Assembly: GCF_003334335.1 (NCBI RefSeq)
Contig: NZ_QOWQ01000157.1
Strand: one strand, 5' to 3'
DNA length: 697 nt
Source: Escherichia coli
GTDB taxonomy: Bacteria > Pseudomonadota > Gammaproteobacteria > Enterobacterales > Enterobacteriaceae
Below are positions 1 through 697 of the stretch, in pieces. Under the pieces are notes generated by a model that did not search any database, was not told the origin of the DNA, and saw only the letters and a program-made list of their open reading frames with translations. A program made the translations under genes and the position numbers. Each line of letters opens with the position of its first letter. The first letter of the stretch is position 1.

Positions 1-697
1 CTGGACCGGCTGGTACAGCAGGGCGGCTTTGACGGGCGGACGCAACGTTATCATTATGACCTGACCGGAAAACTCACACAGAGTGAGGATGAGGGACTTG
101 TCATCCTCTGGTACTACGATGAATCGGACCGTATCACTCACCGCACGGTGAACGGCGAACCGGCAGAGCAGTGGCAGTATGATGGCCACGGCTGGCTGAC
201 AGACATCAGCCACCTGAGCGAAGGCCACCGTGTTGCCGTCCACTATGGCTATGACGATAAAGGCCGCCTGACCGGCGAATGCCAGACGGTGGAGAACCCG
301 GAGACGGGGGAACTGCTGTGGCAGCATGAGACGAAACACGCATACAACGAGCAGGGGCTGGCAAACCGCGTCACGCCGGACAGCCTGCCGCCGGTGGAGT
401 GGCTGACGTATGGCAGCGGTTACCTGGCGGGAATGAAGCTGGGCGGGACGCCGCTGGTCGAGTATACGCGGGACAGGCTGCACCGTGAGACGGTGCGCAG
501 CTTCGGCAGCATGGCAGGCAGTAATGCCGCATACGAACTGACCAGCACATACACCCCCGCAGGCCAGTTACAGAGCCAGCACCTGAACAGCCTGGTATAT
601 GACCGTGACTACGGGTGGAGTGACAACGGCGACCTGGTGCGCATCAGCGGCCCGCGACAGACGCGGGAATACGGCTACAGCGCCACGGGCAGGCTGG
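1..697 (+). CDS. rhs: Internal fragment (5' and 3' partial) of an Rhs-family YD-repeat core protein, the beta-shell scaffold of a polymorphic toxin; both gene ends lie outside the window
   Basis: Seen in sequence: frame 1 is open for all 232 codons. Frame 2 has TGA at 62-64 and frame 3 has TGA at 30-32. The translation begins LDRLVQQGGFDGRTQRYHYDLTGKLTQSEDEGLVILWYYDESDRITHRTVNGEPAEQWQYDGHGWLTDISHLSEGHRVAVHYGYDDKGRLTGE and ends LVYDRDYGWSDNGDLVRISGPRQTREYGYSATGRL. It carries recurring G-x(3-9)-Y-x-Y-D-x-x-G-R-L-T motifs, the hallmark of RHS/YD repeats. Codon usage is CTG-rich with G/C at third positions. Established knowledge: this architecture and composition match the GC-rich core of E. coli-type Rhs elements. 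Core paralogs (rhsA/B/C/D) are too similar to tell apart from 697 nt without alignment, so the symbol is given only at family level. Confidence 0.93.
   Translation, partial: MDRLVQQGGFDGRTQRYHYDLTGKLTQSEDEGLVILWYYDESDRITHRTVNGEPAEQWQYDGHGWLTDISHLSEGHRVAVHYGYDDKGRLTGECQTVENPETGELLWQHETKHAYNEQGLANRVTPDSLPPVEWLTYGSGYLAGMKLGGTPLVEYTRDRLHRETVRSFGSMAGSNAAYELTSTYTPAGQLQSQHLNSLVYDRDYGWSDNGDLVRISGPRQTREYGYSATGRL
34..696 (+). repeat. Tandem array of degenerate YD (RHS) peptide repeats encoded within the CDS, about 20-24 aa (60-72 nt) per unit
   Basis: Seen in sequence: aromatic-x-aromatic/Asp positions recur with a roughly 60-70 nt period. Tyr codons heading the Y-D or Y-G/Y-x dipeptides fall at nt 55, 115, 178, 250, 343, 409, 463, 532, 598 and 670. 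Clear units are GRTQRYHYDLTGKLT (34-78), GLVILWYYDESDRIT (94-138), GEPAEQWQYDGHGWLT (154-201), GHRVAVHYGYDDKGRLT (223-273), GELLWQHETKHAYNEQGLANRVT (307-375), GTPLVEYTRDRLHRETV (445-495), and GPRQTREYGYSATGRL (649-696). The repeats are degenerate at nucleotide level, so this is a protein-level repeat rather than a DNA direct-repeat array. Confidence 0.8.

Follow-up and report, generated by a model that had tools for sequence, protein, structure and literature searches.

YD (RHS) repeats were first defined on the Rhs proteins of E. coli, with the classic consensus YDxxGRL(I/T), and several structures solved since 2013 explain these repeats as hairpins that build a cocoon around the toxin. In Tse5 of Pseudomonas aeruginosa, the shell comprises 40 β-hairpins with the consensus YDXXGRLV, in which DXXGR forms the turn; the motif tyrosine points into the cavity—with His, Arg, Trp, or Phe as frequent substitutes—and the motif aspartate hydrogen-bonds the Gly and Arg backbone within the turn (PMC10684867). 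The YD motif has also been described as the point at which a strand gives way to a sharp turn (bioRxiv 10.1101/2024.02.26.582050).

The stretch of DNA analysed here (697 nt, hereafter the window) belongs to such a gene. It is identical at 697/697 bases (100%) to rhsD of E. coli K-12 (WP_000014739.1; rhsDE subfamily) and corresponds to positions 8001–8697 of the MG1655 locus (L001), inside a coding sequence at 6009–10289; thousands of further E. coli genomes also match at 100%. Frame 1 is open over the entire window and the gene runs past both ends. The first-pass annotation had taken this frame for part of an Rhs core, and both the identity with rhsD and the match to NCBIfam NF041261 RHS_core (profile positions 669–899 of 1261, E 2e-148) bear this out; full-length RhsD scores 2787.7 bits against the same equivalog model (RHS element core protein; residues 1–1258, cut-off 2000). 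Open reading frames in the other five frames reach at most 59 aa, lie within the annotated gene, and were dismissed as mechanical. Outside the window, TIGR03696 matches RhsD 1181–1258, PF03527 was found directly in RhsD, and PF20148 is present in precomputed Pfam lists of RhsD clusters. The C-terminal tip matches DUF4329 (Pfam, E 2.8e-36), and NCBIfam holds no family for this tip or for YbbC.

The neighbourhood reads ybbA-ybbP-rhsD-ybbC and then an orphan fragment of an RHS core. The rhsD core has a GC content of 62%–67%, the C-terminal tip is AT-rich (32%–46%), and the small ORF ybbC lies downstream; Jackson et al. 2009 (PMC2935791) described the rhsDE subfamily, along with a core rich in G+C and a core extension rich in A+T. 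Within this gene, the window almost certainly encodes a central portion of the RhsD shell made up of ten YD (RHS) repeats in a row, each forming one β-hairpin of the spiral cocoon sheet.

Table 1. Features of the 697-nt window. "Earlier anchor" denotes the tyrosine chosen in the first-pass annotation.
Feature	Residues	Position (nt)	Strand	Remark
Frame-1 coding sequence	RhsD residues 665–896	1..696	+	Internal part of Rhs core (shell)
Tail of preceding YD unit	LDRLVQQG	1..24	+	Its YD falls immediately before the window, RhsD 662–663
Unit 1	GFDGRTQRYHY19-D20-LTGKLTQS	25..84	+	Motif Tyr nt 55; earlier anchor right
Unit 2	EDEGLVILWYY39-D40-ESDRITHR	85..144	+	Motif Tyr nt 115; earlier anchor right
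Unit 3	TVNGEPAEQWQY60-D61-GHGWLTDIS	145..210	+	Motif Tyr nt 178; earlier anchor right
Unit 4	HLSEGHRVAVHYGY84-D85-DKGRLTGE	211..279	+	Motif Tyr nt 250; earlier anchor right
Unit 5, long (31 aa)	CQTVENPETGELLWQHETKHAY115-N116-EQGLANRV	280..372	+	Motif Tyr nt 343; earlier anchor right
Unit 6 (specialised)	TPDSLPPVEWLTY137-G138-S-G140-YLAGM	373..435	+	Motif Tyr nt 409; earlier anchor right within 1 residue
Unit 7 (specialised)	KLGGTPLVEY155-T-R157-D158-RLHRE	436..489	+	Motif R157-D158, nt 469
Unit 8	TVRSFGSMAGSNAAYELTSTY184-T185-PAGQLQSQ	490..579	+	Motif Y184-T185, nt 550
Unit 9	HLNSLVYDRDYGW206-S207-DNGDLVRI	580..645	+	Motif W206-S207, nt 616
Unit 10, cut at window end	SGPRQTREY224-G-Y226-S227-ATGRL	646..696	+	Motif Y226-S227, nt 676

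The ten tyrosine-headed dipeptides to which the first-pass annotation had drawn attention were all located in frame 1, with Tyr codons at nt 55, 115, 178, 250, 343, 409, 463, 532, 598, and 670 (Y19, Y39, Y60, Y84, Y115, Y137, Y155, Y178, Y200, and Y224). These are followed in order by D, D, D, D, N, G, T, E, D, and G, and are spaced 54–93 nt apart (mean 68 nt, equal to 22.8 aa; standard deviation 3.4 aa). With 17 tyrosines in 232 residues, a regular-looking subset can always be picked, and the periodicity might thus have arisen by chance or from a composition rich in Tyr, Gly, and Asp, with no true repeat present. Fixed-lag BLOSUM autocorrelation inside the window gave a best z of 3.09, below the 95th-percentile shuffle maximum of 3.38, and at the DNA level Tandem Repeats Finder and a repeat search returned no tandem array in the window, only short two-copy chance matches. 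The missing single lag, however, follows from a unit length that varies between 20 and 31 aa; over RhsD 301–1180, lag 21 gives a z of 7.2.

Shuffle tests, moreover, reject a chance origin: a ten-Tyr chain at 18–31 aa spacing was equalled in 31 of 5,000 composition-preserving shuffles, the five literal YD pairs (1.18 expected) in 73 of 20,000, and the seven occurrences of the motif [YWFH][DNST]xx[GD]x[LIVM] (0.29 expected) in none of 20,000. Repeat detection by profile-profile comparison is likewise significant, hhalign of family profiles of window aa 1–116 against aa 117–232 finding repeats at E 1.8e-10 and 5.3e-10; curated repeat models match the window, and structure prediction yields a regular array of hairpins. 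A chance effect is therefore improbable in the extreme, and the ~69-nt periodicity of Tyr codons is the footprint of a protein repeat, confined to the protein level.

Structure prediction agrees with the claim of ten YD-repeat units with one β-hairpin each. Because an initial homolog set, made up almost wholly of sequences from E. coli and Shigella at >70% identity, lacked the depth needed for this purpose, a representative search took its place. The resulting AlphaFold2 model of the RhsD shell (pLDDT 85.7, pTM 0.78) superposes on solved Rhs cocoons, and its window portion is β-rich—59% strand and 1% helix—with 21 strands and ten YD turns. Each of the ten motif residues closes a strand and leads into a turn, which is five residues long except in unit 6, where it spans three; one loop of unit 8 (aa 172–175) is modelled with low confidence (pLDDT <50). 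RhsD as a whole is predicted to present a closed spiral β-sheet shell with a DUF6531 N-terminal plug and an aspartyl-protease C-terminal plug (DPxGL, Rhs_assc_core).

At the left edge of the window, the preceding unit gives a self-profile match at RhsD 652–672 (NENGSHSVFSYDALDRLVQQG), a Pfam RHS_repeat match beginning at window aa −2, and a model strand at aa 4–8. In unit 1 (self-profile 20.4 bits), Y19 closes strand 14–19 ahead of a five-residue turn, and its ortholog column holds Y in 28/34, with D/N in 27 at the next position. Y39 of unit 2 (self-profile 13.8 bits; TIGR01643 match aa 19–58) closes strand 33–39, again ahead of a five-residue turn; Y60 of unit 3 closes strand 53–60 and is the residue on which a Pfam RHS_repeat match (aa 60–92) begins; and Y84 of unit 4 closes strand 76–84. 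In the long unit 5, Y115 closes strand 105–115 before a five-residue turn, its ortholog column holds Y in 18 and the next position D in 18, and the motif aligns to the HD of Tse5 HSHDALGV.

Y137 of unit 6 closes strand 132–137 and precedes a loop of only three residues; it is conserved in 29/34 orthologs and G138 in 30/34, with G138 and G140 near-invariant shell-wide. Here the register could shift by one residue: the model favours Y137, and the third hhalign hit places the motif at T136-Y137 (probability 54%). Y19, Y39, Y60, Y84, Y115, and Y137 are thus true motif residues, as the first-pass annotation had them, whereas Y155, Y178, Y200, and Y224 are off by two or six residues. Literal picking of Y-x pairs misplaces these four of the ten units because the motif aromatic may be Trp or Arg and an extra Tyr stands two or six residues upstream.

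For these four, the alternative is that every unit is anchored on its literal tyrosine and differs only in the residue that follows; the ten Tyr codons are real and fairly evenly spaced (the standard deviation given above), and Y200-D201 is a literal YD. None of the four tyrosines is strand-final in the model, however. In unit 7, Y155 is the upstream aromatic of YxYD and lies two residues early: strand 150–157 closes at R157, followed by a five-residue turn, hhalign pairs Y82-G-Y84-D85 with Y155-T-R157-D158, and the motif matrix gives −3.2 bits at 157 against −11.1 at 155. Shell-wide, R157, D158, R162, and E163 each reach a conservation of 90% or more. In unit 8, Y178-E179 marks the start of the strand (178–184) that Y184 closes, six residues early; the matrix gives 5.8 bits at 184 against −10.0 at 178, hhalign pairs Y39-D40 with Y184-T185, and the ortholog columns hold Y 22 then D 19 at 184 but a mixture at 178 (Y 9, T 7, L 7).

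The Y200-D201 of unit 9 is a coincidental YD, placed in the loop across the hairpin, outside any strand and six residues ahead of W206, which closes strand 202–206. The ortholog column at 206 is Y 27, W 4, then D 27, N 7, while that at 200 is dominated by Leu (17); the Pfam RHS_repeat model starts on W206, hhalign pairs both Y19-D20 and Y60-D61 with W206-S207, the Tse5 counterpart reads YRYDGLGQLV, and the matrix gives 2.0 bits against −10.4. In unit 10, Y224 is the upstream Tyr of YxYD, two residues early. Here Y226 closes strand 221–226, occupies the self-profile's motif-Tyr column, and is Y in 33/34 orthologs, followed by D in 26 and S in 7; the matrix gives 12.7 bits at 226 against −12.8 at 224. 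The scores at 178, 200, and 224 are thus those of background (null mean −15.4, standard deviation 5.4), and Tse5 carries a literal YD at the places of both W206-S207 and Y226-S227. Five independent lines of evidence already contradict anchoring on literal tyrosines at these four units, and such anchoring is highly improbable for the window as a whole. What looks like a reversion to YD at nt 598 is consequently spurious; in the register preferred here, the last three motifs are YT, WS, and YS in RhsD, and mostly YD in orthologs.

How readily the units are recognised depends on the method. The curated TIGR01643 YD_repeat model scores 19.2 bits on the window (cut-off 15.8) and 158 bits on RhsD, and Pfam RHS_repeat gives four matches in the window. 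A self-profile of RhsD repeats, trained only on sequence outside the window, recovers units 1, 2, 4, and 10; for its seeds, an over-strict motif gave too few and a relaxed version was used. Iteration of the RhsD-only self-profile never recruited units 3 and 5–9, and between window aa 92 and 206 neither Pfam nor the self-profile produced a match. An ungapped matrix does not cope with the altered turns of units 6 and 7. Units 5–9 thus escape sequence-profile detection at conventional thresholds and are assigned by ortholog alignment, profile-profile comparison, and predicted (not solved) structure; single-sequence repeat profiles are too insensitive, so ortholog profiles and structure are needed. 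The window nevertheless shows the tandem ~21-aa units and YDxxGRL(I/T) motif that define a YD/RHS repeat, recognisable in units 5–7 only through ortholog alignment and structure.

The first-pass annotation had proposed a "gradient of repeat degeneracy". At the true anchors, motif scores for units 1–10 are 12.6, 1.6, −1.5, 12.7, −0.4, −18.1, −3.2, 5.8, 2.0, and 12.7 bits, that is, a trough at units 6–7 followed by recovery rather than a gradient. The middle units, 5–8, might still be decaying under relaxed constraint and drifting from the consensus: motif scores do drop from unit 1 to unit 6, and self-profile scores, at 22–30 bits for units preceding the window, fall to 20.4, 13.8, and 9.8 bits before units go undetected. 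The recovery across units 8–10 makes the trend non-monotonic, however, and conservation runs the other way. Among 34 orthologs, each of <70% identity, units 6 and 7 (nt 373–489; WLTYGSGYL, YTRDRLHRE) are the most conserved, with mean top-residue frequencies of 0.57 and 0.62 against 0.40–0.44 in the canonical units 3–5. Of the 19 columns that are near-invariant in the entire 1159-residue shell, six lie in these two units, and their signature YG.G.L...RD.LHRE is retained in Tse5, an Advenella Rhs protein, and Tse15, at only 21%–30% overall identity. Decay under relaxed constraint is therefore unlikely, and units 6–7 are better understood as specialised, position-specific variants than as decayed copies. 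Degeneracy against a repeat consensus need not mean weak constraint, and units 6–7 show the opposite.

Being the best conserved, and keeping their signature at 21%–30% identity, units 6–7 could conceivably mark a hitherto undescribed functional site of the cocoon, a proposal to which only a small probability is attached. Candidate roles could include a charged cluster serving closure of the inter-layer seam, N-terminal autocleavage, or toxin retention or release; alternatively, these units may be a purely structural variant hairpin. A search of structural papers on Tse5, RhsA, and Tse15 turned up no role for the conserved RD.LHRE and YG.G residues.

Under the reading of the window as ten YD repeats, each repeat of ~20–31 residues, with the form xxDGxxx-[R/x]-Y-x-[Y]-[D]-x-x-G-R-L-[T/I], would fold into one β-hairpin. 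The motif aromatic would end the first strand, D-x-x-G-R would make the tight turn, and L-T would start the return strand, with a second, looser turn connecting to the next repeat. Adjacent hairpins would join side by side into a continuous antiparallel sheet, and this sheet would spiral into a closed cocoon, which in the Rhs proteins studied encloses the C-terminal toxin. By analogy with published homolog structures, we infer that the motif Tyr faces the cavity, that Asp, Gly, and Arg form a hydrogen-bonded turn, and that the toxin is encapsulated. E. coli K-12 is commonly regarded as having no functional type VI secretion system (T6SS), and the biological use of the shell in K-12 itself is thus uncertain.

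The ten-unit tyrosine pattern is an already known, ordinary feature of a fully annotated gene. As a textbook feature its importance is small, and the gains are one negative result and two corrections, of register and of degeneracy.

Compared with the YD/RHS repeat as catalogued (PF05593, TIGR01643), both of whose models match the window, units 1–4 and 8–10 fit the consensus, whereas units 5–7 fall below the model thresholds; the turn of unit 6 is shortened to G-S-G, and in unit 7 R-D-x-x-H-R-E replaces Y-D-x-x-G-R-L. The spiral β-hairpin cocoon fold is common to RhsD, RhsA of P. protegens (7q97), the Advenella and Salmonella bongori Rhs cores (8qja-d), Tse15 (8uy4), the BC components of Tc toxins (4igl, 4o9x), and teneurins (6fb3). 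Foldseek with the shell model gave TM-scores of 0.73/0.82 to the Advenella Rhs protein and 0.73/0.80 to RhsA; query-normalised values were 0.55–0.73 for T6SS Rhs shells, ~0.4–0.5 for teneurins and TcdB2-TccC3 fusions, and ~0.1–0.2 for isolated Tc chains. These other YD-shell proteins share 8%–25% identity with RhsD and differ from it in N-terminal plugs, delivery modules, and payloads. Tse5 (8cp6, cryo-EM; PMC10684867) is the closest solved relative, at E 7.3e-122, 30% identity, and a TM-score of 0.78/0.83 over ~1170 columns (chain 8cp6_B). Its published hairpin geometry and YDXXGRLV consensus (PMC10684867) agree with RhsD, and it aligns colinearly with every unit of the window in turn, the variant units 6–7 among them; the two proteins differ at their C-termini, where Tse5 has a pore-forming toxin and RhsD a DUF4329 tip.

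The window matches rhsD of E. coli K-12 MG1655 at 100% identity and is found unchanged in many other complete E. coli genomes. It lies inside the rhsD coding sequence and therefore encodes RhsD residues 665–896, with frame 1 of the plus strand open across all 697 bases; ORFs in the other five frames are short (≤59 aa) and were judged to be mechanical. RhsD scores 2787.7 bits against the NCBIfam equivalog RHS_core (cut-off 2000), the window aligning to positions 669–899 of the 1261 in this profile. Related copies of the window occupy a median of five places per E. coli genome; 12 of the 19,154 matching places are on plasmids rather than chromosomes.

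In the K-12 record, rhsD lies between ybbP, upstream, and ybbC, which is followed by an orphan fragment of an RHS core. A G+C-rich core followed by an A+T-rich core extension has been described for rhs (Jackson et al. 2009; PMC2935791), and rhsD shows this classic pattern, with 62%–67% GC in the core and 32%–46% in the C-terminal tip, which Pfam identifies as DUF4329 (E 2.8e-36). Downstream, ybbC is presumably the immunity gene, a putative role; no family in NCBIfam matches it at E ≤0.01. The orphan core fragment, which lacks an N-terminus and is followed by small hypothetical ORFs, corresponds to the displaced-tip organisation already described at rhs loci. A 'prePAAR' motif, AARxxDxxxH, has been reported in T6SS Rhs/PAAR effectors, which the RhsD N-terminus (MSGKPAARQGDMTQYGG) presumably resembles, with Tyr replacing His.

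Features of the window and of the rhsD locus. L001, K-12 MG1655 rhsD locus record; unit rows give the revised motif residue, the first nucleotide of its codon, and its matrix score
Feature	L001 (nt)	Window (nt)	Window (aa)	RhsD (aa)	First-pass dipeptide	Score (bits)
rhsD CDS (WP_000014739.1)	6009–10289			1426 aa in all		
RhsD N-terminus	6009–6100			1–30		
Window	8001–8697			665–896		
C-terminal tip	9882–10241			1292–1411		
ybbC	10329–10697					
Orphan RHS core fragment	10721–11407					
Unit 1		55	19		Y19-D	12.6
Unit 2		115	39		Y39-D	1.6
Unit 3		178	60		Y60-D	-1.5
Unit 4		250	84		Y84-D	12.7
Unit 5		343	115		Y115-N	-0.4
Unit 6		409	137		Y137-G	-18.1
Unit 7		469	157		Y155-T	-3.2
Unit 8		550	184		Y178-E	5.8
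Unit 9		616	206		Y200-D	2.0
Unit 10		676	226		Y224-G	12.7
Units 6–7 together		373–489	125–163	789–827		
Loop of unit 8		514–525	172–175	737–740 of the shell		

The ten Tyr-headed dipeptides proposed by the first-pass annotation are all present in frame 1 at the nucleotides given for them, spaced 18–31 aa (54–93 nt) apart. The window holds 17 tyrosines, and the chance picking of such a chain was therefore tested by shuffling: only 31 of 5,000 shuffles reached a 10-Tyr chain at this spacing (mean longest chain 5.1). Literal YD, expected 1.18 times, is seen five times, a count that 73 of 20,000 shuffles reached; the turn motif [YWFH][DNST]xx[GD]x[LIVM], expected 0.29 times, is seen seven times, a count that 0 of 20,000 reached. 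No single lag is significant in BLOSUM autocorrelation within the window because unit length varies; across RhsD 301–1180, peaks appear at lags 21 (z 7.2) and 42 (z 4.9). A repeat was also sought in the window at the DNA level, and none was found. The HHrepID-style check suggested at first pass, made with hhalign on ortholog profiles of aa 1–116 and aa 117–232, detected repeats within the window, with E-values of 1.8e-10 and 5.3e-10 (probabilities 97%). The periodicity is real.

Six of the ten proposed anchors are correctly placed, whereas seven independent lines put the other four out of register; the revised positions lie on average 23.0 aa apart (sd 3.6). Of the four, Y155 and Y224 occupy the first aromatic position of 'YxYD', upstream of the motif residue; Y178 is the opening residue of a strand closed by Y184; and Y200-D201 (nt 598–603) is a coincidental YD, which illustrates that picking motifs by literal match can mislead. 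Alignment with Tse5 sets 'YRYDGLGQLV' opposite RhsD 'YGWSDNGDLV', 'YEYDLGGRL' opposite 'YGYSATGRL', and 'HAPLGRL' opposite 'YTPAGQL'. An ungapped position matrix trained on nine RhsD repeats, all outside the window (null mean -15.4 bits, sd 5.4), gives Y178, Y200, and Y224 -10.0, -10.4, and -12.8 bits, respectively, against the positive scores of Y184, W206, and Y226. Among 34 orthologs below 70% identity, 27 carry Y and 4 carry W at column 206 (next column D 27, N 7), 33 carry Y at column 226 (D 26, S 7), and 22 carry Y at column 184 (D 19), whereas column 200 is mostly Leu (17) and column 178 is mixed (Y 9, T 7, L 7). The Pfam RHS_repeat model opens on 'YD', and its match near the window end begins at W206. 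The hhalign matches pair Y19-D20 and Y60-D61 with W206-S207, Y39-D40 with both Y184-T185 and Y226-S227, and Y84-D85 with Y226-S227; a third, weaker match (E 1.3e-4) pairs Y82-G-Y84-D85 with Y155-T-R157-D158. A self-profile seeded outside the window places its motif-Tyr column on Y226, and the structure model agrees with the revised register.

This model, of shell residues 100–1258, was predicted from an alignment of 48 relatives (32%–95% identity) and has a mean pLDDT of 85.7 and a pTM of 0.78. Ten-residue blocks of the window mostly fall at 83–95, with weaker blocks from the mid-60s to high 70s; pLDDT drops below 50 only in the loop GSMAGSNAA (aa 172–175). Orthologs also differ more here than anywhere else in unit 8, so this is probably a variable surface loop. 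DSSP assigns the window 21 strands (59% strand, 1% helix). The motif residue is modelled as the last of a strand in 10 of 10 units, followed by a turn of five residues (three, G-S-G, in unit 6), which supports the proposal of about ten units, each predicted to form one beta-hairpin. Y155 and Y224 fall two residues before a strand end and Y178 six before, while Y200-D201 sits in a short helical turn of a loop on the far side of the hairpin.

Motif strength does drop on entering the window, but the pattern is not the first-pass 'gradient of degeneracy': it is a trough at units 6–7 with later recovery. Self-profile repeats at RhsD 355–672 score 22–30 bits; inside the window the scores are 20.4, 13.8, and 9.8 bits, then none until 7.8 bits at unit 10, and Pfam RHS_repeat has no match between aa 92 and 206. 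Units 6–7 (WLTYGSGYL ... YTRDRLHRE) are the least like the YD consensus. Decay does not explain the trough. Ortholog conservation here is the highest after unit 1: mean top-residue frequency among divergent orthologs is 0.57 in unit 6 and 0.62 in unit 7, against 0.40–0.44 in units 3–5. The shell alignment spans 1159 residues and has 19 columns with ≥90% conservation, six of which (G138, G140, R157, D158, R162, and E163) lie here, and Tse5, Advenella Rhs, and Tse15 keep the signature YG.G.L...RD.LHRE at 21%–30% identity. Units 6–7 are position-specific, constrained variants of the repeat. Their strong conservation is the only loose end; the structural papers on Tse5, RhsA, and Tse15 were searched for a role of the conserved residues, and none was mentioned.

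Foldseek matches the model to solved Rhs cocoons, closest to Tse5 (8cp6_B; E 1e-82, TM 0.78/0.83), the Advenella Rhs core (8qja; TM 0.73/0.82), and P. protegens RhsA (7q97; TM 0.73/0.80), followed by Tse15, S. bongori Rhs, Tre23, and RhsP, and then teneurins and Tc toxins. Tse5 has 40 hairpins with the consensus YDXXGRLV, the turn being made by DXXGR, and its cavity-facing Tyr is often His, Arg, Trp, or Phe instead (PMC10684867); the strand-final motif and turn modelled here agree with these descriptions. Rhs proteins of E. coli were themselves the source of the consensus YDxxGRL(I/T) (as cited in PMC4436062 and PMC10684867), and the window, which shows all the testable defining features of the YD-repeat family, is the type example of it. 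The first-pass annotation was right to read the YD repeats as hairpins belonging to an Rhs shell, which is already known, and wrong to see a gradient; the corrections concern which register four of the units take and how 'degeneracy' is read.
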